Part shown: positions 41,441 through 51,765 of the stretch, piece after piece
How the letters are laid out: each line of letters begins with the position of its first letter
Position numbering within the stretch: the stretch's first letter is position 1
Origin: a candidate division FCPU426 bacterium
GTDB taxonomy: Bacteria; Oederibacteriota; Muellerivitia; Muellerivitales; Muellerivitaceae
Assembly: GCA_030038835.1 (NCBI GenBank)
Contig: JASHQZ010000055.1
Span: 1-51,765, forward strand
Direction of reading: 5' to 3'
DNA: 51,765 nt
The notes under the pieces: generated by a model
What the model saw: only the letters and a program-made list of their open reading frames with translations
The model's database searches: none
Told to the model about the DNA's origin: nothing
Position numbers and translations under genes: made by a program

Positions 41441-42018
41441 TTCGCATCCTTGAAAGGCAGGTTACAGCCCATGGTCGACAAGTTCACAGCAAGACCTTCC
41501 TTCCGCTTTTTGACTCGGCTGTCAGCTGTGAAATGTGACCCGTCAGCTGCTTTCAGGGGGCAAAGTATAACATGGGTTTTCCCGCCAAAATACCGGCGTT
41601 CGGCCCACTCACGCCCGTTCAGTGACCTTTTTCGGCTTTTCGGGTATTCGCAACCCTTTTGCCCCCCGTTTGGGATATTTTTAACGAAGGGCGATTAGGA
41701 CTGGCTTGAGCGGCAAGACAACCGCAGCCGATCCTGATCTTGGGCACCACGGCCCTGCTCTAAGGCGGGGCCGTGTTCTTCTAAACATAAAAATTCCCCG
41801 TTTTGAAAAATGGGGCGAGGGGGCTGGAGTCTTTTTCGATAACCGAGTCCAAAATCCCCTGCCATCCCCCGGGATGGTTTGCCGACCAAGGGGCCTCAGG
41901 GTTTTATGAAGGGAGCGGTTCCGTTGGCCATGAAAGGACCCTCCACTTGCAAAAGGTGAAAATAAGCCGTTGGGATTATTCCAGTGTTGGTATCATCTCC
42001 GGAAAGAAGAGCCTGGCT

Positions 42019-42038
42019 CCGGGGAATACCCCGGTTTT
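42019..42038 (+). terminator. Terminator/attenuator-like hairpin CCGGGG-AATA-CCCCGG followed by TTTT
   Basis: A GC-only 6-bp stem, a 4-nt loop and a T4 run, 47 nt upstream of the preferred kinase start. Confidence 0.3.
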
Positions 42039-42084
42039 GGCGAAAACTGCCGCTGACGGATCGGCACAACCGGTGAAATGGCGG

Positions 42085-43218
42085 ATGAACCAACTCTGGA
42101 AAAAAATCTTCTTCCTTGATTTCGAGAAGTCCTTCTTTTCCTCCTGTGCCAAGCTCCTTTTTGTTTGGAACCCCCTTTGGACCCTTTTGGTCAGTTTTGT
42201 ATTGAGCAATTGGACCTTATCTCTTTTCCGCTGGGGCTGGAACTTTTTTGAGGCAAGCTGTGCCGTTTTGATAGGGTTGGTCCTTGTAAAAGCCTATCTT
42301 TTTGCGGAAAGAGCTTGGGCCCAATGGTCGGCTAAAAACCTTCCACGACACGGATTGGCCTGGCATCTTCTGTTTGTGGCTTTCGTAGCTCCTTTAGGGG
42401 TTTACATTGCGGATCATCTGATATTAGTTTTCATCAACTCTATTTACCCTGGCGAACCTATACCCTTCGAGTTTCATTGGCGGTTTTACGGCACCGAGAT
42501 TTCCTGGATTTGGTCCCTTTTTTTGGTTTGTTTCCTTTTCTTTTCCTTCTTGGATCTGCGGGACGCAGCCCGTTTAAGCCAAATCCGGGCCGAAGAGCTT
42601 GAAAAGGAAAGACTGCAGGCGGCCCTGGACAAACTAAAAGACCAGATGAATCCCCACTTCCTTTTCAATACCCTCAACACGGTGGCGGCCCTAATCCCCG
42701 CCGATCCCGGCAAGGCCGAGGAAGTGGTAGTGAAACTTTCGACCCTCTTCCAGGCAGTTTTGGAAGCCACCCGAGAATCCAACCATTCCCTAGTCAAAGA
42801 ATTGGAGTTCTGCAGGACCTACTTGGACATTGAAAAGGCTCGGTTTGGTCCACGGCTTTCCTCTTCTATTGAGATCGGGCAGGGGTTGGACCCCGCCCAG
42901 GTCCTGGTGCCCGTCCTTTTGCTTCAACCCCTAGTGGAAAACGCGGTGAAACACGGCCTTTCTTCCCGTGCGGCGGGGGGAAGGATCTGGATCCGGGCGG
43001 TGTTGGCCGGCGGTCGTTTGGAACTGGTTGTGGAGGACGATGGCGTGGGGTTTGGGAATTCCCCTTACGCGGGTTCGGGAACGGCCTTGGAGAATTGCCG
43101 CAAGAGGCTGGAATTGGGGTTTGGAAAAGAAGGACGGCTGGAAATAACACTCCGTCCAGGGGGTGGGACGAAAATCGGGTTGTCGATGCCGCTCTTAGCG
43201 GCAAATGGTAACGAATAA
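42085..43218 (+). CDS. LytS/YehU-type sensor histidine kinase (polytopic sensor, His_kinase plus HATPase_c)
   Basis: NPHFLFNTLNTVAALI (H box of the LytS family) and LLQPLVENAVKHG (N box), preceded by 4-6 TM helices. The ATG at 42085 is preferred because the 94-aa upstream extension from 41803 has no membrane or domain character. Confidence 0.8.
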   Translation: MNQLWKKIFFLDFEKSFFSSCAKLLFVWNPLWTLLVSFVLSNWTLSLFRWGWNFFEASCAVLIGLVLVKAYLFAERAWAQWSAKNLPRHGLAWHLLFVAFVAPLGVYIADHLILVFINSIYPGEPIPFEFHWRFYGTEISWIWSLFLVCFLFFSFLDLRDAARLSQIRAEELEKERLQAALDKLKDQMNPHFLFNTLNTVAALIPADPGKAEEVVVKLSTLFQAVLEATRESNHSLVKELEFCRTYLDIEKARFGPRLSSSIEIGQGLDPAQVLVPVLLLQPLVENAVKHGLSSRAAGGRIWIRAVLAGGRLELVVEDDGVGFGNSPYAGSGTALENCRKRLELGFGKEGRLEITLRPGGGTKIGLSMPLLAANGNE

Positions 43219-43240: not shown

Positions 43241-43987
43241 ATGATTAAGGCTTTGATCGTCGATGACGAGTCTCCCGCCAGGTCGCGGCTAGCCCGATTG
43301 CTTTCCGCCTTCCCGGACTTGGAGGTAACCGGGGAGGCCGCCAACGGGTTGGAGGCCCTGCAGTCCGCCCAAACCCTCCATCCAGACCTGGTGTTTTTGG
43401 ACATTGAAATGCCCGAGCTGAACGGTCTGGAAGTGGCGGAAGCCTGGGGCGGGAAGGGGCCAGCGGTGGTTTTCGTGACGGCCTACAGTGAGCATGCCTT
43501 GAGGGCATTTGAGCTTTCGGCCCTGGATTACCTGGTGAAACCCGTGTCACCCGAGAGGCTAGCCGAAACCATGGACCGCCTGAAACGGCGTAAGGAATCC
43601 GGTTCCCGTGCTCCCCTCCAAAAGCTCATCGAACGCATGGAGGAGGGCCGCGCCCGCAGGCGCATGGCGGTCAAGTGCGGGTCCAAGTACCGCGTTTTCG
43701 AACCATCCCAGGTTTCGGCCATCGTGGCCCGCGAGCACTACGCTGCCTTGCTAGTGGACGGCCAGGAATTGTTATCCGACGATAGCCTGGACCAACTGGC
43801 CCAAAGGCTGGACCCCAACCGTTTCTTGAGGATTCACCGCAGCGCCATCATTAATCTGGATTACCTCAGGGAACTGGAACATGAGGGTGACCGCAAGTAC
43901 ACGGCGGTTTTGTCCGATCCGGCCAAAACACGCCTACCGGTAAGCCGCGAAAGGCTGGAGGATTTGAGGAAAACACTGGGATTGTAG
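43241..43987 (+). CDS. LytR/AlgR-family response regulator (REC plus LytTR DNA-binding domain)
   Basis: REC domain (ALIVDDE, LVFLDIEMPELNG, KP). LytTR domain (VSAIVAREHYAALLVDGQELL ... FLRIHRSAIINL). Confidence 0.9.
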   Translation: MIKALIVDDESPARSRLARLLSAFPDLEVTGEAANGLEALQSAQTLHPDLVFLDIEMPELNGLEVAEAWGGKGPAVVFVTAYSEHALRAFELSALDYLVKPVSPERLAETMDRLKRRKESGSRAPLQKLIERMEEGRARRRMAVKCGSKYRVFEPSQVSAIVAREHYAALLVDGQELLSDDSLDQLAQRLDPNRFLRIHRSAIINLDYLRELEHEGDRKYTAVLSDPAKTRLPVSRERLEDLRKTLGL

Positions 43988-44028
43988 AAAGATTGAGCAC
44001 TCTAAATTGGATTTTATGGATGGTTTAA

Positions 44029-47000
44029 ATGTTGGCTGGTGGACTTCTTCTTCAACGCTTTCAACAACTGGCCCTTCTGGGTTTGGGGATCGTTTTTTTT
44101 ATCTTTCCGCTCCGTGGGGCAAACGCCCAAACAACAACTTCGGCCACGCCGGCTGTTTCGTCTTCCCCGGCAGCCACTTCCGCTTCCGATTTGATGGTAA
44201 GTCCTGAAGAGGAAATCAAGATACTGGACGCCATTGACGCCCAGTCCAATAGCCTTAACGCCCAAACCACGCCGTTGGCCACGTCTTCCATCTCCGGGTC
44301 CGCCTCAACCGCCGCCCCGGCAACGGCGGCCGGAGGCGGAGGGGCGTCAATTTTAGCGCCGCTTTCCGGAGCCGCAGCTCCGGTCAACTATCCTCCCCCG
44401 GCAGCTCCAACCGGTTTGAGCGTGCTAATTCTTAAGGAAGGGGTTTACCTTTCCTGGGACGCGGCGCCGGCGGGCTCCCCCGTCACGGCCTACGACGTTT
44501 ACCGCTCCACCACACCGGGTGAGGGATACCTGCGCGTTAACACCCAACCCGTCCCAGCCCCGTATTTCCTGGACGGTTCCCAAACCAGCCTTTCTCCCCC
44601 GCGAAACGGCGAGGATTATTTCTACGTGGTGACCGCCAGCGATTCCTACGGCAAAACTAGTCCTGATTCAGATGAATTGACGGTTACACCCGATGGCATG
44701 GAAATTGTCCAGTCTGAAGCAACGGCGCCGACCCCCAGCCCAACGCCCGAGGCGGAAAAAGTCCTGGCTATTCCGGAAAAGAATCTGATCAACCTCCAGT
44801 TGCCGGCGGACACGTCGCTTTCCATCCAGGGTTACAAGAAAATCGAGGCGGATTTGTCCTTCCAGGATTTCTACGACCGGCCCGTGGAGAATGGCGTTCC
44901 GCAGCAGCAGGACACCACGCTTATCAATCAGGAGCTAGTAGTCGACTTGGTGGGCAAGGTGGGGAAAAACGTGGACGTGAACGTGGACTATAGCGACGTC
45001 AACCGGGCGGGAGGCGTGGACCAGACCAAGCAGGTCATTTCCATCACCTACCACGGCGATGAGGACAGTCCCGTCCAGGAGGTGGAATTCGGTGACCTGC
45101 AGCTGGTGCTCCCCAACACCCAGTTCGCGGGCTTCAGCAAGAACCTCTTCGGCCTCGAGGCCATGTTCAAGTTCGATAACTTTCACTTGACCACTTTTTT
45201 CGCCCAGACCCAGGGCATTTCGGCTACCAAGACCTTCACCGGCAACACCGTGCAAGTGGACAAGATGATCCAGGACATCCAGTATGTCCCGAACAAATAC
45301 TTTCTCATTACCCGTGAAAACCTGACCCCCACCACAAGCACATCGACCAATGGCGCCCTTCCCGCGCCCAATACGGAGCAGATCTGGGTGGACCAGGGGA
45401 CGGGCCAGATCAACCCCACTGGGCCCAATTTCGGAGGGCCCAACAATCTTTTTGCACATTGGTTGCCGGGACGGGACTACACCATCGACTACTCCACGGG
45501 TATCATCACCTTCATCACGGCCCTGCCCTCCACGGCCCGCATCGCCGTGGGATTCCAGAACCAAAACGGCCAATACCGGGGCTTGAACGCTTATAACAAT
45601 AGCAACACAGCGAATTTTCCCCAGAACGTGCCTTCCACTGACCTGTTCGTGCCGGACAATGGGGCGGTGGGGGTTACAGTTAGCGTCTCGAATCCAACCT
45701 TGAATCAAACAGGGAAATACCCGGGATTCCTGATCAAGGACAACAACAATTCCACCGGCTGGACATCGGCCAACGCCATTGCCTGCTCGCCCCTTTATCT
45801 GGTCAATTTTTTCAACCTGGGCACCGACAAGATCGTGCCCCCCCAGGACGACCCGGGTTTTCTTTTCCAAGTCATTTCCACCAACAATACGGTCCTTCAA
45901 ACCGGGCAGGGCGTCTCAACGGTGGGCTCTTCCACCCCCTGGGTCTACAACGTGGACCTGGACTTCAACTACCTAACGGTCATCAACGCCAATTTCCTGG
46001 CCTCGGCCGCGCCGACCTCCTTCTTATGGCCGGAACGGCCCTTCGCCAACCTGGACACCTCCGGCGGCTCCAGCTCCAGCGCCAACCCGCCGGACGTCTA
46101 CTGTCAGACCGTTGCGCCCACTAGCCAGTATACCGTCCATGTCCGCTACAAGACCCAGTCGAACAACTACTCGCTGGGCCAGTTCAACATCATCCAGGGA
46201 AGCGAGTCGGTGTATCTGGACGGCCGTCGCCTCCAGCGCAACGTGGACTACATGATCGACTACACCTCCGGCACCCTGGATTTCCCCAACAAGAGCATCC
46301 TCTCACCGGACAGCCAGATCGTGGTGACCTACGAGTACGCGCCCTTTGGCTCCACCGGCCAAAACAACATCCTGGGTGCCCGGGCCGAATACGACATTAC
46401 CGACAACTTCTTCATCGGCTCCACCTTCCTTGAGGACGACGCCCAGCAGCCCCTGGAGGTGCCGCAGATCGGTTCCACGCCCGACTCCCTCACCCTTTTC
46501 GACGCGGACACGCGCCTGGACCTGTCCCGGGATGACGTGAAATCCCTCACTGGCGTGATCCCCGGTCTTGAAGATTGGAAGCCTCCCTTGAGCGTCAAGC
46601 TCTCAGGGGAAGTCGCCCAAAGCTACTACAACCCCGACACCTACAACGCCGAGGGGGAAAACGGCGTCGCCATGATCGACAACATGCAGGGCATCGACAG
46701 CGCAACGGCCCTCTCAACGAACCAGACTTCCTGGCTGGTTTCCGCTCCCCCCGAGCCCGTGGGGTTTCTGGGCAACGTCACCTACGACGGGGGAGCGGAC
46801 GCCACCAATAATCGGGTCCGTTTCTACAACTCCGGCGCACCCAACTCCGTCATGGAGGTTTTTCAAACCATCGGCACGTCTAACACCACCGGCGGCTACA
46901 CCACGGTGCCCGCCTACGGCGGCAATGTTTATGCCCAAACCCAACAGGCCAACGATGCGGTACAGGTGTTGCAGTTTCCTTATTCGAACCTTACCAACCA

Positions 47001-50000
47001 GAGGTGGGCGGGGTTGAGGACGGTGATTTCCACGAACGGCGCCGATTTTTCCAACGTGACCTATTTCGACAGCTGGATTTACAACGACGGCAATCCCAAG
47101 TGGATCATGGTGGATTTCGGGGTTTTGAACGAAGACGTCAACGGCCAACCGAGCGTCGGCCCCGGCAGCCCTTTTTTTTCCGATCCCAACGAGTACGCCC
47201 AACCCCAGCTTCCAGCCAACCCTCTTTACGCCATTCCCACCTACTATTACCAGGGAAATCCCTGGTCAGCCGGCGGGAGTTCCACGGCCCCGATCACCTA
47301 TCTCCTTCCGGGGGAAGAGACCTCGCAGGAAGGGGTCAGCGTGGGGAGCGGAACCAGTTACGTCAACGAGAACATGAACGGCACCAATATTTTGAACAAC
47401 ACGGATGCCTATTACGAATACGGCATCGATGCCAATTGGACCGGATGGCATGAAGTGAAGATTCCCATCAACTTATCCGGTTCGGCAAGCCCGGGAACGA
47501 CCCCGGACGGAATCAGCTATTTCTTCAACACTGTAGGCGCGCCGACCCCCACTATTATCCGCTCGGCCCGCATCTGGATGACCGGTTCCAATTCCACGCC
47601 CATCAACGGCGACGTTTATTTCGAGAGCGTCAACTTCACCCAAAACCTTTGGGTCCTGCAGGTGGACCCCACGGCAAACGCCAGCCAGGGCGTGACGGTC
47701 AACCCCACCAAGTTCGACGTGGATTCCATCAGCCAGGCTGAGAACTCCAGTTTCGTGCCCACGCTCAACTTCGTGACCGTGCAGTCGGGCCAGGATCAGT
47801 CCGCTCTCCTATACCAGGAAAAGGCCCTGGAAATTACCTACAATCTTTCCTCGGCCGATTTCCAGCCCTCCGGCAACATCAACGGCACGCCCATTTATTA
47901 CGCCACCCGGCTCTTTAGCCAGGGGCTGGACCTCACCAACTTCCAGGACCTGCGGTTTGAACTTTACCTCAGGGCCTATCAGCCGGGGGACGTGCTTTTC
48001 CTGCGCGTAGGGAACGACCCGCAGGATTATTACCAGTTCAACATGCAGTTGAGCCAGGCCGCCGTTTCCTGCCTCAATACCTGGGGCACGGTGGACTTCC
48101 CCTTGAGCGGGTCGGCGGGCAATCGGCTCCAGGTGGGGACGCCTTTCATCAACCGCGTCACCAACATCAGCTTCGGGGTGGTCTCCCCCAACCCGCCCTC
48201 GGGTTTCACGGGCGACATGTGGATCATCAACCTGCACGCCGCCAACTCCGTCGTGCGCAGCGGCATGGCCCGCCGGGCCGACGCGGCCTTTGTCATCGGC
48301 GACGACGCCAAGAAGCCCTTTGCCACGATGAACCTGCGCTACGAGGAAGTGGACTCGGGCTTCACCCAAATGGACCAAACCAGCACCCATTTCCAGCATT
48401 CCACCCAGTTGGGGGCGGACTACACCTCCAGCGGGGTCTCCCTTTTTTCCCAGCCGCTGGTCACCCAGGCTTCCTATACCCACCAGGATCTCACCACCGA
48501 GTCCGCGCTCTTGGACAACCCTTATTACATTTCCTTGCCCAATACCCACAGCGACAACGCCATCGGCAGCATCAGCTATACCAAGGATCTGGGGTCCTCG
48601 TTCGGCCGCCTGACCTCCTTCCAGCTTTCCGGCAGCCTGAATGACCAAAACTCAACCTATCCCAACCAAGAATACCTCTCCCAACCCGGGGTGCAGGGTA
48701 ACAACCAAAACAACCAGGCTGTCTACACGGTGGCCTCCACCTACGACGCACCTGCGAAAATTTTCTTCCTGCCCATCGGGGCCAACCAGTTCACTGAAAG
48801 TTATTCCATGACCTACAACACCGAGGATTTCCTGGCCCCCAACTACGAGGGGCTGGCCAATTACGACCGCACCACCCGTACGCAGACCTACGGCTGGACC
48901 AACACCACGGAGCTCGTGAAGAACCTGGTTATCACTCCGGGATATACCTGGACCCTGACGGACGCGATGGGCAATACCAACTCGGCCGGGGTGCCGGTTT
49001 CGGTCTCCAGTTATTCGGTGACCTACATGCCCTTCCAGGAGCAGGAACAGCCCAAGGCTGGGCTGGTGTACCGGGGCATCTCAGGACTGACCCCCTCCGT
49101 GGCCTATACCGGAAGCAACAGCTACGACTGGGTCTCCTATTCCACCGGCCTGCAGTTCAACAGCGCCAACAATCTCGCCTTCACGGGCAACTTCACACCG
49201 AGCAGTTGGTTCGGTTTCCTCCAGAAGATCAACCCCACCTTGACCTATGGCCTCACCTATGCCGCTAATTCCACCATCCCCGGCTACCGCCAGGGGATGC
49301 TGAATTTGGACGAACAATGGGGCATTAACCCCGATTTCACCGACTCCCTTACCGCAAGCCAGTCGGAAACCAACCAGGTGACCGGCGACTTTAAGCTTTT
49401 CGACGTATGGGATTTCCGGCCTAACGCCTCTTGGACCAACCAGTTGAACCTTCTTTCCCAGGGCTCCAATCCAGCGCCCCAGTATGGTAAAACCATAGGG
49501 CTGACTACGGTGTACAATCGTAAAATCCTAACCTTGCCCCTGGTGGGCCTCACCGTGGACTCGGCCCAGTTCCAATATACCCACACGGACAGCACCCAGT
49601 ACGACAGCACTGTCCCGCCCAGCATCGACAATGAAACGGACAGCGATCTTTACGGTATCACCCTGCCTTACGACCTGGGCAAGGGCGCGGGCCAGGGCAA
49701 CATCCACCTCCAGCAAACCACGGGATACCAGAACGGCCTTTCCACCCTGAGCACCGGGGTCACCCAACTGGACCAACAGGCTTCCGTCGAGTATGACCAG
49801 CGGTTCAACCCCCACTTGGAGCTTCATGTTCCCCTCACCCACTGGGTCATCCGTATGGGCAATGACGTGGACCTGAAGGCCACATATTTCATGGAGTTCG
49901 TGAACAACCAGTCCAGCTACATCAACAACGAGCTCCAGACCCAAACGTACCGTGTTACAATCAACTGCCAGTACAATGCCCTCACGAACCTGCTGTTGGG

Positions 50001-50097
50001 CGTGGGCCTGACTAACACGTATTTCACCAACCAGCAGAACAACCAGTTGAACTATGTGCTGTGGATGGGAACCGTCTCGGCGGAAGCAAGATTCTAA
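44029..50097 (+). CDS. Giant (2022 aa) outer-membrane protein: signal peptide, low-complexity A/S/T region, FN3 domain, then a very large beta-rich body with blocks I recollect as SprA/Sov-like and a C-terminal beta-signal
   Basis: One uninterrupted ORF. The signal peptide ends at GANA-QT. The FN3 domain is APTGLSVLILKEGVYLSWDAAP..VTAYDVYRS. The block VDLVGKVGKNVDVNVDYSD...ISITYHGDEDSPVQEVEFGDLQLVLPNTQFAGFSKNLFGLEAMFKFDNFHLTTFFAQTQG resembles the SprA N-terminal repeat as I recall it (not computed). The composition is N/T/S/Q/Y/G-rich with alternating hydrophobicity. The last residues, VSAEARF, have hydrophobics at every second position and a terminal Phe. Confidence 0.7.
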   Translation: MLAGGLLLQRFQQLALLGLGIVFFIFPLRGANAQTTTSATPAVSSSPAATSASDLMVSPEEEIKILDAIDAQSNSLNAQTTPLATSSISGSASTAAPATAAGGGGASILAPLSGAAAPVNYPPPAAPTGLSVLILKEGVYLSWDAAPAGSPVTAYDVYRSTTPGEGYLRVNTQPVPAPYFLDGSQTSLSPPRNGEDYFYVVTASDSYGKTSPDSDELTVTPDGMEIVQSEATAPTPSPTPEAEKVLAIPEKNLINLQLPADTSLSIQGYKKIEADLSFQDFYDRPVENGVPQQQDTTLINQELVVDLVGKVGKNVDVNVDYSDVNRAGGVDQTKQVISITYHGDEDSPVQEVEFGDLQLVLPNTQFAGFSKNLFGLEAMFKFDNFHLTTFFAQTQGISATKTFTGNTVQVDKMIQDIQYVPNKYFLITRENLTPTTSTSTNGALPAPNTEQIWVDQGTGQINPTGPNFGGPNNLFAHWLPGRDYTIDYSTGIITFITALPSTARIAVGFQNQNGQYRGLNAYNNSNTANFPQNVPSTDLFVPDNGAVGVTVSVSNPTLNQTGKYPGFLIKDNNNSTGWTSANAIACSPLYLVNFFNLGTDKIVPPQDDPGFLFQVISTNNTVLQTGQGVSTVGSSTPWVYNVDLDFNYLTVINANFLASAAPTSFLWPERPFANLDTSGGSSSSANPPDVYCQTVAPTSQYTVHVRYKTQSNNYSLGQFNIIQGSESVYLDGRRLQRNVDYMIDYTSGTLDFPNKSILSPDSQIVVTYEYAPFGSTGQNNILGARAEYDITDNFFIGSTFLEDDAQQPLEVPQIGSTPDSLTLFDADTRLDLSRDDVKSLTGVIPGLEDWKPPLSVKLSGEVAQSYYNPDTYNAEGENGVAMIDNMQGIDSATALSTNQTSWLVSAPPEPVGFLGNVTYDGGADATNNRVRFYNSGAPNSVMEVFQTIGTSNTTGGYTTVPAYGGNVYAQTQQANDAVQVLQFPYSNLTNQRWAGLRTVISTNGADFSNVTYFDSWIYNDGNPKWIMVDFGVLNEDVNGQPSVGPGSPFFSDPNEYAQPQLPANPLYAIPTYYYQGNPWSAGGSSTAPITYLLPGEETSQEGVSVGSGTSYVNENMNGTNILNNTDAYYEYGIDANWTGWHEVKIPINLSGSASPGTTPDGISYFFNTVGAPTPTIIRSARIWMTGSNSTPINGDVYFESVNFTQNLWVLQVDPTANASQGVTVNPTKFDVDSISQAENSSFVPTLNFVTVQSGQDQSALLYQEKALEITYNLSSADFQPSGNINGTPIYYATRLFSQGLDLTNFQDLRFELYLRAYQPGDVLFLRVGNDPQDYYQFNMQLSQAAVSCLNTWGTVDFPLSGSAGNRLQVGTPFINRVTNISFGVVSPNPPSGFTGDMWIINLHAANSVVRSGMARRADAAFVIGDDAKKPFATMNLRYEEVDSGFTQMDQTSTHFQHSTQLGADYTSSGVSLFSQPLVTQASYTHQDLTTESALLDNPYYISLPNTHSDNAIGSISYTKDLGSSFGRLTSFQLSGSLNDQNSTYPNQEYLSQPGVQGNNQNNQAVYTVASTYDAPAKIFFLPIGANQFTESYSMTYNTEDFLAPNYEGLANYDRTTRTQTYGWTNTTELVKNLVITPGYTWTLTDAMGNTNSAGVPVSVSSYSVTYMPFQEQEQPKAGLVYRGISGLTPSVAYTGSNSYDWVSYSTGLQFNSANNLAFTGNFTPSSWFGFLQKINPTLTYGLTYAANSTIPGYRQGMLNLDEQWGINPDFTDSLTASQSETNQVTGDFKLFDVWDFRPNASWTNQLNLLSQGSNPAPQYGKTIGLTTVYNRKILTLPLVGLTVDSAQFQYTHTDSTQYDSTVPPSIDNETDSDLYGITLPYDLGKGAGQGNIHLQQTTGYQNGLSTLSTGVTQLDQQASVEYDQRFNPHLELHVPLTHWVIRMGNDVDLKATYFMEFVNNQSSYINNELQTQTYRVTINCQYNALTNLLLGVGLTNTYFTNQQNNQLNYVLWMGTVSAEARF

Positions 50098-50099
50098 CC

Positions 50100-51765
50100 A
50101 TGAAACCCAACAAAAGCTCACAGTCGACGGTTGGCAGTAGGTGGCCACGTCTTTTCAGGCGATCCCTGTCGCCTGCTGACTGCGGACTTTTAGCCCTTCT
50201 CTTTTTAGGGGTTTCCACACTGGTTTTCGCGCAGCCGCCCGTGCCTTCGGGGCTTTCCGTCATCGCCCCCTACGATGGGGAAGTGAACCTGGTATGGACT
50301 CCAGACGTCTCGGAAACACCGGCGGTAACGGCTTATCTCCTCAGCCGGCAAGAACTCAATGTGCCGAACACGCCCACCCCCACCGGTACCCTGACGCCCA
50401 CCACGTGCACACCCCAACCCCTGGCCACCGTGCTTTTGTCCTCCATGCCCGGCCCCGGAACGCCCGTTTACCAGGATTTGCAGGTGACCGACGGCCTGGA
50501 TTACCTCTACCAAGTGGCGGGTATTGATTCGGGCGGGGTACCGGGGGGAGCCTCTTCCGTTACAGCCGCTCCTTATTTAGGTCCTGTGGCCATCCAGCCC
50601 GTAACCGTCCAAAACATTCATTCCAATGCCTTGGATCTTTCCTGGGGAGTTCCCGCCTCCAGCTATCCGATTTCTTTTTATCAAGTCTATCTTTTCAAGT
50701 ACCTCACAGCGACTCCCACACCTAATCCTCCCAACACCGCGACTTTTACCCCAATCGGTACCTGGAATACACCTTCCCCTACCTTCACCCCCACTTTCCC
50801 CCAAACTCCTGTCCCAGCCTCCACGGTTTTAAGCGCCATGCCCTTGGCCACAGTTTTTGGAACCGCCTACAGCGATACCACGGCCAATTCCTCGGGCGCG
50901 GCGGCTTTTTATTACGTGGTGATGGCCACGGACAGCCAGGGCCACTTGGGTGCCCAACCCACTTACGCTAGCAACCCGGACCTGCCCATCAACATGTCAC
51001 CTCCCGGGCCACCCACGCTTACCGCCTTGGTGACGCTGACCCCCACGCCCCCCGTTATTGGGCAGAACGGTTACGGCGCAAGGCTCATCTGGAACTCTTC
51101 GCTTGGCTCGGAAGGGGTAACGGCTTACGAAATACTGCAGAACAACACCCCCATTGCCACCGTCCCCTACCAGGCCGCCACGCCCACGATGACCTACGAT
51201 GATTCCACCCTGCCTGCGGGAAACAACGGCAATCTCATCACCGTTTACAACGTGGTGGCCGTGAACACTTATGGGACCGGAACCTCCAATACCGTGGCCG
51301 TCACCCTAAACGCGGCCGTGGAGTCGGAGCCGATCACGGTGACGCCCAATGCCACCACCAACGCCGTCACCCTCACATGGAACCCTGCCACCCCTGGAAC
51401 CTACGGCCTGGCCGGCTACCAGCTTTATAAGAGCCCTTTCGGGGTGCCCGCGATCAATCCTACTCCCATCCCGGCCGGGAGCCCCACGGCCACTGTCACG
51501 CCTACCCCCTTCGCCACCATCTTTACCAACCCCTCCGTGACGGCCGTTTTGACATGGGTGGATACCCCCATCGTCAACCACATGAACTATTGGGTGCAAC
51601 CCGTGGACCTGACTGGCCATGGAGGGTGGTTAAATGCGGCCTCTCCACCCGCCTTAAACTTGGCCCCCACGCCGCCTTCCAGCGTGGGTGTCGCCAATCC
51701 GGTGGGGAACAACCAGATCGCGGTGACATGGGCGCCGGGAGGCCCGGGGTTTTACGGAACGCAGT
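50100..51765 (+). CDS. Secreted multi-FN3 repeat protein, 3'-truncated by the window edge
   Basis: The ATG is 2 nt after the giant gene stop. The frame stays open for all 555 codons to the window end, which is why the ORF track does not list it. The signal peptide is LLALLFLGVSTLVFAQ. At least 5 FN3-like modules are present (LSVIAPYDGEVNLVWTP..VTAYLL; ALDLSWGVP..ISFYQVY; ARLIWNSS..VTAYEIL; AVTLTWNP..LAGYQLY; QIAVTWAP). Confidence 0.8.
   Translation, partial: MKPNKSSQSTVGSRWPRLFRRSLSPADCGLLALLFLGVSTLVFAQPPVPSGLSVIAPYDGEVNLVWTPDVSETPAVTAYLLSRQELNVPNTPTPTGTLTPTTCTPQPLATVLLSSMPGPGTPVYQDLQVTDGLDYLYQVAGIDSGGVPGGASSVTAAPYLGPVAIQPVTVQNIHSNALDLSWGVPASSYPISFYQVYLFKYLTATPTPNPPNTATFTPIGTWNTPSPTFTPTFPQTPVPASTVLSAMPLATVFGTAYSDTTANSSGAAAFYYVVMATDSQGHLGAQPTYASNPDLPINMSPPGPPTLTALVTLTPTPPVIGQNGYGARLIWNSSLGSEGVTAYEILQNNTPIATVPYQAATPTMTYDDSTLPAGNNGNLITVYNVVAVNTYGTGTSNTVAVTLNAAVESEPITVTPNATTNAVTLTWNPATPGTYGLAGYQLYKSPFGVPAINPTPIPAGSPTATVTPTPFATIFTNPSVTAVLTWVDTPIVNHMNYWVQPVDLTGHGGWLNAASPPALNLAPTPPSSVGVANPVGNNQIAVTWAPGGPGFYGTQ

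Follow-up and report, generated by a model that had tools for sequence, protein, structure and literature searches.

The phylum FCPU426 is uncultured, and public records of its genomes name genes such as the one described here "hypothetical protein." This gene, which encodes a protein of 2,022 amino acids (aa) (ATG start, C-terminal end ...WMGTVSAEARF), lies near the end of the window, that is, the whole 51,765-nucleotide (nt) stretch of DNA analyzed. An earlier note, made from the sequence, proposed a likeness to SprA/Sov, raising the question of whether this phylum encodes the translocon that a type 9 secretion system (T9SS) places in the outer membrane and, if so, with which partners it would work. 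The evidence below makes it probable that the gene is the FCPU426 version of SprA/Sov. The locus contains the following features, with the basis of each assignment in parentheses.

41803..43218, + strand: LytS/YehU-type sensor histidine kinase, first gene of the module (PF06580 His_kinase, E 4e-23; HATPase_c, E 1.5e-9)
43241..43987, + strand: LytTR-type response regulator, separated from the pore gene by 41 nt (Response_reg, E 1.7e-21; LytTR, E 3.9e-20)
44029..50097, including the stop codon, + strand: probable SprA/Sov-like outer-membrane translocon ("the pore"), 2,022 aa (TIGR04189, profile against PDB, hhalign, AF2, Foldseek)
44029..44127, + strand: putative Sec signal peptide, residues 1 to 33, cleavage after GANA (reading of the sequence)
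44200..44250, + strand: short conserved motif SPEEEIKILDAIDAQSN, residues 58 to 74, within a variable Ala/Ser/Thr-rich stretch (alignment of 22 relatives)
44383..44706, + strand: N-terminal FN3 domain, residues 119 to 226, presumably periplasmic (family profile against PDB 3mpc, E 5.9e-6)
44707..44778, + strand: acidic/Pro-Thr linker APTPSPTPEAEK, residues 227 to 250, followed by the barrel (sequence)
44818..45312, + strand: SprA N-terminal conserved block, first barrel strands (TIGR04189 positions 99 to 257, 57.6 bits)
46108..46755, + strand: best-conserved SprA block, with the second DY-x-IDY motif (TIGR04189 positions 576 to 789, 127 bits; aligns with SprA from residue 678 onward)
47368..48069, + strand: third SprA-matching block, cap/insert region (TIGR04189 positions 1090 to 1336, 29 bits)
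48211..50094, + strand: predicted C-terminal part of the barrel, 26 consecutive long beta-strands, residues 1395 to 2022 (AF2 model; Foldseek match to SprA, E 1e-35)
50062..50094, + strand: C-terminal beta-signal WMGTVSAEARF (alignment of 22 relatives)
50100..51765, + strand: 5' part of the partner gene, encoding an FN3-array protein of about 1,580 aa with a T9SS type-A C-terminal sorting domain (CTD) (runs off the contig, resumes on contig C131)

The pore open reading frame (ORF) is not a chance ORF because 36 relatives of its product, with 40 to 89% identity, share its length and architecture; the 2,022-aa ORF of the earlier note is thus real, and all the features listed for it there were found. 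Forty of 41 FCPU426 genomes carry the pore as a single ORF, and it is the only SprA-like gene in this one. In 12 of the 13 related loci, a LytS-type kinase gene lies directly 5' of the pore gene, and the LytTR regulator (68 to 94% identity) is present in each case just upstream. Overall, a synteny comparison shows that the order of kinase, regulator, pore, and partner is kept in 12 to 13 of the 13 loci, and judging from this synteny, expression of the pore gene is probably under the control of the LytS/LytTR pair. Genes for lipopolysaccharide (LPS) synthesis and export also neighbor the pore gene; the local context reads lptFG, two-component system, pore, cargo.

Homology to SprA was evaluated with several profile methods. 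The curated equivalog model TIGR04189 matches the pore protein in three colinear stretches (E 9.7e-60) with 202.1 bits, a marginal pass over the cutoff of 200, and matches all 22 aligned relatives (best E 6.9e-75); the search suggested by the earlier note, therefore, came out in favor of its reading. A profile of the pore family retrieved the solved SprA structure 6h3i at E 1.4e-28, again in three ordered stretches, and hhalign comparison of this profile with 11 canonical SprA sequences yielded a probability of 100 and E 3.5e-61 over 1,092 columns, covering the pore from residue 259 to about residue 1430. The segment between nt 44935 and 45300, in which the earlier note saw the conserved N-terminal SprA pattern, falls within the first TIGR04189 match and belongs to a block that aligns residue for residue with positions 153 to 308 of Flavobacterium johnsoniae SprA (6h3i), and the proposed pattern was therefore right. 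The motif DY-x-IDY-xx-G-x-(I/L)-x-F, reported to occur twice, indeed has exactly two copies, at residues 483 and 740. The long polar stretch, previously put at about 1,750 residues, comprises the remaining ~1,770 residues of the pore, in which T, N, S, G, and Q are abundant and Cys occurs only 4 times. One expectation of the earlier note failed: Pfam SprA_N (PF14349) does not match the pore protein even at E ≤1, and it matches only 2 of the 22 relatives at E ≤0.01. The equivalent block of the pore is still aligned by TIGR04189 and to 6h3i. The C-terminal third of the pore (~620 residues) gave no significant sequence-profile match to the SprA C terminus.

For this last region, the evidence comes from structure prediction. 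With AlphaFold, the pore was modeled as two overlapping halves, so that the barrel was never seen whole; the mean AF2 pLDDT is 81.5 for residues 823 to 2022 and 75.3 for the other segment. For both halves, the best four Foldseek matches are the SprA structures 8gl6, 8gl8, 6h3i, and 6h3j, with E values of 1e-35 (residues 823 to 2022) and 7e-45, respectively; the next barrels appear at E 1e-6 or weaker, which puts SprA at least 25 orders of magnitude ahead. Across the two overlapping half-models, 26 long strands were counted in the last 630 residues and about 10 to 14 earlier, the reference being the single-chain, 36-strand, capped barrel of SprA with its lateral opening. By predicted fold only, the C-terminal third is SprA-like, and sequence profiles together with fold prediction suggest that the pore forms a SprA-like giant capped beta-barrel, the outcome that the earlier note had proposed to look for by predicting the structure in segments. 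The terminal WMGTVSAEARF, which that note read as a beta-signal, is in place, and S2017, E2019, A2020, and F2022 are invariant in the 22 relatives.

The region preceding the barrel differs from SprA. Residues 10 to 33 are the sole strongly hydrophobic window of the protein and are followed by RGANA|Q, in agreement with the signal peptide and GANA cleavage site proposed previously. Residues 34 to 122 consist of 22% A, 18% S, and 11% T; the earlier description of about 90 residues of Ala/Ser/Thr/Gly low complexity thus captured the Ala/Ser/Thr richness but missed the conserved motif SPEEEIKILDAIDAQSN within, which is present in most of the 22 aligned relatives between flanks that differ in length and sequence. 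The FN3 module, originally placed at about nt 44398 to 44690, scores only 10.5 bits against Pfam fn3 (PF00041) (E 0.72; the gathering score of 25 is not reached), whereas the pore family profile finds the FN3-like protein 3mpc, a solved structure, at E 5.9e-6; therefore, the fold assignment rests on the profile, not on Pfam. A family FN3 hidden Markov model (HMM) detected the module in each of the 34 close relatives whose sequences cover the N-terminal region and gave no match in the distant SprA homologues P0038 to P0053. The impression that an FN3 head is foreign to characterized SprA/Sov proteins holds for the canonical and distant SprA homologues sampled; in other FCPU426 families, there are 1 to 3 N-terminal FN3 copies. 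The Pro-Thr linker seen earlier, APTPSPTPEAEK, follows.

In F. johnsoniae, SkpA and SprE dock onto the SprA N terminus, which is periplasmic and needed for transport (PMC10994853). Positions 1 to 98 of TIGR04189 have no match in the pore protein, and the hhalign alignment begins at SprA column 169. By sequence comparison, the ~150-residue SkpA/SprE-docking N terminus is thus replaced by the conserved motif, the FN3 module, and the linker. Because the FN3 head occupies the place of this periplasmic segment, it is most likely periplasmic itself and not a surface module.

The partner gene starts with an ATG 2 nt after the pore stop codon. The continuing ORF on contig C131 covers residues 516 to 1582 of the related partner P0054 at 86% identity and ends in ...EFEKVAVIK, an ending that is conserved in the partner family. 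In all 8 related loci, the partner tails match T9SS CTD models; TIGR04183, the type-A model with a cutoff of 23 bits at the extreme C terminus, gives 17 to 27 bits, with 3 of the 8 over the cutoff, and all 8 tails also match the CTD part of the PorZ, PorU, and M6-like cargo models. The tail in this genome ranks first (E 1.3e-35) in a search with an HMM of the related tails.

The search for T9SS components was extended to 41 FCPU426 genomes, 31 of which are of high quality. Type-A CTDs exceed the TIGR04183 cutoff in all 41, with 7 to 68 copies each and 15 in this genome, where an iterated HMM detects about 41 CTD-tailed ORFs. PorV-like matches are likewise present in all 41 (7 to 37 per genome); this genome has 19 such ORFs, several of which adjoin CTD-tailed ORFs. 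Their NF033710 scores are 56 to 98 bits versus an equivalog cutoff of 250, and the matches cover positions from about 5 to 250 of 367; these ORFs are best regarded as PorV-family paralogues and only as candidate orthologues. Nearly all FCPU426 matches to the PorU model NF033707 span only its CTD part; matches to the C25 region occur only in G032, G012, G036, and G019 (families f7, f10, and f13), and there are none in the family of this genome. Profile searches of the 41 genomes detected GldL, GldM, and GldN in none, and GldK yielded only generic FGE-sulfatase matches of at most 88 bits in 17 genomes, this one not among them. A Chryseolinea genome, used as a positive control for the GldM searches alone, scored 289 bits for GldM and 91 bits for GldM_1st; beside it, TIGR03517 in 3 FCPU426 genomes and GldM_1st (PF12081) in 15 gave nothing above noise. 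In phmmer searches with Chryseolinea GldL, GldM, GldN, and GldK, this genome returned a single coiled-coil false match. A motor that had diverged as far as the pore, which reaches about a tenth of the typical score, could escape detection.

From sequence, homology, and genome context, a route can be proposed. The pore precursor would be exported by Sec via its signal peptide and inserted by BAM via the invariant C-terminal ...SAEARF signal. Type-A CTD proteins, at least 15 in this genome including the 1,580-residue FN3-array protein encoded 2 nt downstream, would pass from the periplasm into the pore, where they would bind a PorV-like carrier at the lateral opening and exit together with it. 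Type 9 secretion in Bacteroidota is thought to require the proton-driven GldLM motor, the energy step being the pull-off of the PorV-cargo complex from SprA (PMC10994853). Given that the GldKLMN/PorKLMN motor-ring is undetectable in the phylum, pull-off of the carrier-cargo complex would be driven by something unrecognized, or not be driven at all. A bolder reading, less likely than not, is a stripped-down T9SS, consisting of a SprA-like pore, expanded PorV-like carriers, and CTD cargo, that lacks the GldLM motor, the GldKN ring, and the SkpA/SprE dock, in which the motif and FN3 head may take the docking role and carrier-cargo release may be spontaneous or powered by an undescribed energy source.

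The main competitor is a canonical motor-driven T9SS whose GldLM/GldKN (PorKLMN) components have diverged beyond the reach of sequence models, the pore working as in Bacteroidota. The pore scores just 202 bits with TIGR04189, Bacteroidota proteins scoring far higher, and the PorV-like proteins remain at 56 to 98 bits versus a cutoff of 250; therefore, other T9SS parts could be equally eroded. Against this, searches of up to 41 genomes, 31 of high quality, come up empty for four independent families (GldK, GldL, GldM, and GldN) and for the Pfam GldM domain, although the same genomes do show the pore (40 of 41), carriers (41 of 41), and cargo tags (41 of 41), and the GldM positive control succeeded. 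Furthermore, the pore lacks the SkpA/SprE-docking N terminus, which forms its link to the energy chain, and we consider a hidden motor of this kind doubtful.

Other explanations concern the role of the barrel itself. The pore and partner genes, 2 nt apart here, keep their adjacency and order in all related loci examined, and FN3 modules of one general type occur in both products, as would be expected if the barrel served solely to export or anchor the FN3-array protein, a two-partner-like pair instead of a general translocon. This arrangement is improbable in view of the single SprA-like gene per genome versus 7 to 68 CTD proteins and the numerous PorV-like carriers whose genes lie elsewhere, and the partner CTD is of the same class as those of other cargo. 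Less probable still is a SprA-derived giant barrel without a secretory function, which might act as an uptake channel or have a structural or envelope-tethering role, like the large barrels of Deinococcus SlpA/SDBC: Foldseek does match SlpA/SDBC and TonB-dependent barrels weakly (E 1e-6 to 1e-4), and the adjacent LPS synthesis/export genes also point that way, but SprA matches at least 25 orders of magnitude better and is colinear in sequence over 1,100 residues, and the genome retains cargo tags and carriers, which need a translocon.

The FCPU426 pore is a very divergent SprA relative with a different periplasmic head, in a phylum without a recognizable motor. FCPU426 as a whole combines this pore with many carriers and dozens of tagged cargo proteins and shows no recognizable motor, ring, or docking N terminus. 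If this picture is true, it provides a natural test of which T9SS parts form the essential core and shows how the periplasm is linked to a pore whose known coupling site has given way to an FN3 module. Were the stripped-down reading correct, the pore-carrier pair could be the ancestral, self-sufficient core of the T9SS, and the motor a later addition of the Bacteroidota type. These bacteria live in soil and peat, and the conserved regulator-pore-cargo operon probably makes their principal surface coat or adhesin; the result also gives names to the FCPU426 genes so far recorded as hypothetical.

Among known systems, F. johnsoniae SprA (6H3I, 6H3J, 8GL6, and 8GL8; TIGR04189) is colinear with the FCPU426 pore from after the linker to about residue 1430. 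The two have in common the N-terminal barrel block, a pair of DY-x-(I/V)DY motifs, a giant barrel whose cap inserts are jelly rolls (predicted for FCPU426), a C-terminal Phe beta-signal, and co-occurrence with PorV-type carriers and type-A CTD cargo. They differ in length (2,022 aa versus 2,403 aa, the homologous body being about 500 residues shorter in FCPU426), in the C-terminal third, which is unrecognizable by sequence, in the missing SprA_N match, and in the swap of the docking N terminus for motif, FN3, and linker. The genomic contexts are also distinct, ruvA-sprA-gcvH in a Chryseolinea genome compared with lptFG, two-component system, pore, and cargo in FCPU426, and the Bacteroidota T9SS includes GldKLMN, none of which was found in FCPU426.

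TIGR04189, a model named Sov/SprA, also covers Sov of Porphyromonas gingivalis (PG0809), which is likewise presumed to be the pore for CTD cargo. Sov has as partners the PorKLMN motor-ring, PorW, and the PorU/PorZ/PorQ attachment complex, with regulation by PorXY/SigP (PMC8754138). Comparison with this protein set, made via published descriptions, sets FCPU426 apart by an undetected motor-ring, a PorU-like peptidase confined to a few other FCPU426 families, and an adjacent LytS/LytTR regulator. Reviews consider a T9SS possible outside Bacteroidota in Chlorobiota, Ignavibacteriota, Gemmatimonadota, Cloacimonadota, and Fibrobacterota; their list does not include FCPU426 (PMC11285876). The FN3 head distinguishes the FCPU426 pore from the sampled distant homologues, P0038 to P0053, and the SprA-like proteins of other non-Bacteroidota phyla likewise pair a divergent SprA homologue with CTD cargo.

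The pore gene (44029..50097, plus strand; 2022 aa, ATG start) is the longest ORF within the window, and its translation contains every feature that the earlier note had read from it:

plus strand, N terminus: hydrophobic segment ending RGANA/Q (signal peptide), the sole strongly hydrophobic window in the protein
plus strand, residues 34-122: Ala/Ser/Thr-rich stretch
plus strand, window 44200-44250: 17-residue motif SPEEEIKILDAIDAQSN, inside the Ala/Ser/Thr-rich stretch that separates the signal peptide from the FN3 domain
plus strand, residues 119-226: FN3-like module (the "head")
plus strand, after the FN3-like module: linker APTPSPTPEAEK
plus strand, C-terminal to the linker: Thr/Asn/Ser/Gly/Gln-rich body of ~1770 residues
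plus strand, C-terminal end: ...WMGTVSAEARF

The whole protein contains 4 Cys residues, and the motif DY-x-IDY-xx-G-x-(I/L)-x-F, previously noticed at two sites, is found at residues 483 and 740 and nowhere else. The stretch at residues 34-122 had been described as low complexity; it is indeed Ala/Ser/Thr rich but contains the conserved motif SPEEEIKILDAIDAQSN, which is kept in most of 22 aligned relatives, with freely variable flanks, and may be a docking helix. GC skew is -0.12 to -0.19 over the pore gene (44001-50000) and about zero or positive over nearly all of the remaining window, which probably reflects the Thr/Asn/Ser/Gln-rich composition of the protein.

The pore protein belongs to the SprA family, marginally by the curated model and also by profile and fold. 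The two models proposed as checks in the earlier note gave opposite outcomes: TIGR04189 (NCBIfam, T9SS translocon Sov/SprA) scores 202.1 bits (E 9.7e-60), barely above its 200-bit cut-off, whereas Pfam SprA_N (PF14349) gives no match to the protein even at E<=1. The TIGR04189 match is split into three colinear segments, nt 44818-45312 on model positions 99-257, nt 46108-46755 on 576-789, and nt 47368-48069 on 1090-1336; Pfam fn3 reaches just E 0.72. Because Pfam SprA_N gave no match, homology was established via TIGR04189, profile-to-PDB comparison, and hhalign. TIGR04189 matches 22/22 relatives and Pfam SprA_N only 2/22. The profile of these 22 relatives (A1) finds F. johnsoniae SprA in the PDB (6h3i, E 1.4e-28) over three colinear segments, the first of which reproduces, residue for residue, the conserved N-terminal SprA pattern given in the earlier note. 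Alignment by hhalign with 11 canonical SprA sequences spans 1092 columns (probability 100, E 3.5e-61), pairing pore residues 259 to ~1430 with canonical SprA columns 169-1586. A search of 5.8 billion proteins returned 36 close relatives (40-89% identity, 1200-2045 aa), all of those with a source name being titled "hypothetical protein"; the more remote matches carry Pfam SprA_N or the SprA name. The segment at the second DY-x-IDY motif (window 46120-46345, residues 698-772) weakly matches phage tail families, namely, DUF2460 (E 9e-4), distal tail protein TIGR02217, and tail tube NF052337, the last of which is matched in 6/22 relatives (best E 3e-5); this segment is shared with canonical SprA.

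For structure prediction, the pore was modeled with a 38-row alignment as two overlapping halves. In the model of residues 823-2022 (mean pLDDT 81.5), 26 consecutive strands of 10-20 residues run from residue 1395 on; the model of residues 236-1435 (pLDDT 75.3) shows long strands at its start and at 779-869, with beta-sandwich inserts between. When each half was compared with the PDB using Foldseek, the top four matches were SprA chains (8gl6, 8gl8, 6h3i, and 6h3j), with E values of 1e-35 to 4e-31 and 7e-45 to 1e-32 for the two halves, and the next-best barrels (MtrB, TonB-dependent receptors, and Deinococcus SlpA) scored E 1e-6 or weaker. The segment-wise prediction suggested earlier thus places SprA chains as the best structural matches of both predicted halves; the SprA TM-scores, normalized to the query, are a modest 0.37-0.45, in line with half barrels. 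The C-terminal 620 residues are assigned by fold alone, because their profile similarity to the SprA C-terminus is not significant (hhalign, only E 0.02, probability 2%), and sequence homology of the C-terminal third to SprA was dropped on these values. Foldseek also matches the cap/insert region (residues ~880-1390, nt ~46670-48200) locally to carbohydrate-binding modules of the jelly-roll type (CBM11, CBM4, and CBM22; target-normalized TM 0.5-0.6).

FCPU426 is a candidate phylum without a cultured member, and 40/41 of its genomes encode one family-profile ORF of 1720-2334 aa. A second copy of the SprA-like gene was not found in the window's own assembly (2.6 Mb, 85% complete). Among the 41 genomes, only G037 (99% complete) lacks the pore gene at E<=1e-10; its congener G006 has one, and a gap in the G037 assembly is the probable cause. 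In species-representative genomes, related loci belong mainly to "candidate division FCPU426"; their source labels comprise five FCPU426, five proteobacteria, and three "bacterium" only. The proteobacterial labels are probably wrong. Loci L008, L012, and L017 (MFD MAGs) and L009 are FCPU426-type loci at 61-72% identity that stand under "uncultured proteobacterium" or "Proteobacteria bacterium," which looks like a taxonomic mislabel.

The earlier remark that an FN3 head is not known from characterized SprA/Sov agrees with its distribution: every one of the 34 close relatives whose sequence extends into the N-terminal part has the head, FCPU426 genomes encode it in one to three copies, and it was not found in the distant SprA homologues P0038-P0053. 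An origin of the head as a recent copy of the modules of the partner, the FN3-array gene directly downstream, is unsupported, the similarity being weak (best E 0.001). A 2024 structure paper describes F. johnsoniae SprA as a capped barrel of 36 strands that opens laterally; PorV loops enter the pore and hold the cargo sorting domain, the energy-requiring step is the release of the PorV-cargo complex, with energy supplied by GldLM via a hub, and loss of the SkpA/SprE docking site in SprA abolishes transport (PMC10994853). In the pore protein, homology to SprA starts at the position that corresponds to SprA residue 150-170, and therefore the motif, FN3 domain, and linker should be periplasmic. 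This N terminus takes the place of the SkpA/SprE dock of F. johnsoniae SprA without resembling it.

Upstream of the pore lie skp-lpxD-lpxC/fabZ-lpxA-lpxI, a divergent lptF/lptG pair, a LytS-type kinase, and a LytTR regulator whose 3' end is 41 nt from the pore gene. The LytS/LytTR pair is located directly 5' of the pore in 12/13 related loci and presumably controls it. The partner gene starts 2 nt past the pore stop codon and is interrupted by the contig end, the remaining half being the first ORF of contig C131 of the same assembly. Full-length copies in relatives (1487-1679 aa) are built from FN3 modules plus Pro/Thr-rich inserts and end in a conserved tail, ...IKVY.L.G.F.K.LV...LVASGVYL.T.E..G.QE..K.AVIK. 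Of eight such tails, 8/8 match T9SS C-terminal-domain models, 3/8 above the TIGR04183 cut-off; judged by this sequence match, the partner is a T9SS-type cargo whose gene appears to share an operon with that of the pore.

The other parts of the system were surveyed across 41 FCPU426 genomes, 31 of them of high quality. Type-A sorting domains (CTDs) above the cut-off occur in 41/41 genomes (7-68 copies each, 15 in the window's own genome), as do PorV-like barrels (7-37 each), always under the PorV equivalog cut-off. Iterated HMMs recovered 19 PorV-like ORFs and ~41 ORFs that end in a sorting domain from the own genome. The PorV-like expansion, 19 ORFs in a genome of 2.6 Mb at 85% completeness, is phylum-wide; several of the own-genome ORFs (e.g., on contigs C245, C13, C176, C190, C81, C210, and C262) are 500-780 aa long with added domains, and on C176, C210, C262, and C13, PorV-like ORFs directly adjoin CTD-tailed genes. 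Nearly every match to the PorU model NF033707 covers its CTD portion only, and only four genomes, belonging to three other FCPU426 families (f7, f10, and f13), gave a match to the PorU-like C25 peptidase region; the matching ORFs span 596-1508 aa, with two at ~1195 aa:

genome G032, contig C10: PorU-like C25 match
genome G012, contig C2, 433374-433907: PorU-like C25 match
genome G036, contig C1, 863170-863691: PorU-like C25 match
genome G019, contig C195: PorU-like C25 match

Given this patchiness within the phylum, the attachment or cleavage step may vary among FCPU426 bacteria.

Canonical T9SS has a motor-ring (GldKLMN), whereas none was detected around the FCPU426 pore (GldM 0/41, GldL 0/41, and GldN 0/41 genomes, with a positive control that covers GldM only). 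This control was a Chryseolinea genome found through its SprA; the standard control genomes lack a T9SS motor. Chryseolinea scored 289 bits for GldM and 91 bits for Pfam GldM_1st, and FCPU426 genomes searched alongside it gave nothing above noise (3 genomes for TIGR03517 and 15 for GldM_1st, PF12081). The GldK model, which had no positive control of its own, produced matches of <=88 bits and none in the own genome or two 99%-complete relatives; these were rejected as GldK, being generic FGE-sulfatase domains patchily distributed across genomes. A phmmer search with Chryseolinea GldL, GldM, GldN, and GldK against all own-genome ORFs returned a single false match, the GldL candidate C69_838_1707 (E 0.009), an MlaD/MCE-like protein matched through its coiled coil only. 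Between true absence of the motor and extreme divergence, we infer absence.

The most likely function of the pore is secretion, in which this SprA-type translocon would serve the CTD cargo of the genome via PorV-like carriers. Its periplasmic attachment would differ from that of SprA, and the energy input would be of an undescribed kind, or there would be none. According to reviews, T9SS "may also be present" in a number of FCB phyla and is missing from other lineages (PMC11285876); no report of T9SS in FCPU426 was found in the literature searched. Canonical SprA possesses Pfam SprA_N and a SkpA/SprE-docking N terminus, unlike the FCPU426 pore, which is considered a variant of SprA rather than a canonical one because it lacks both and because no motor-ring was detected in the system around it. 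The gene order differs as well: in Chryseolinea (L037), canonical sprA is located between ruvA and gcvH, with gldK-L-M-N on a separate contig, whereas the FCPU426 pore gene lies between lptFG plus the two-component system and its cargo gene.
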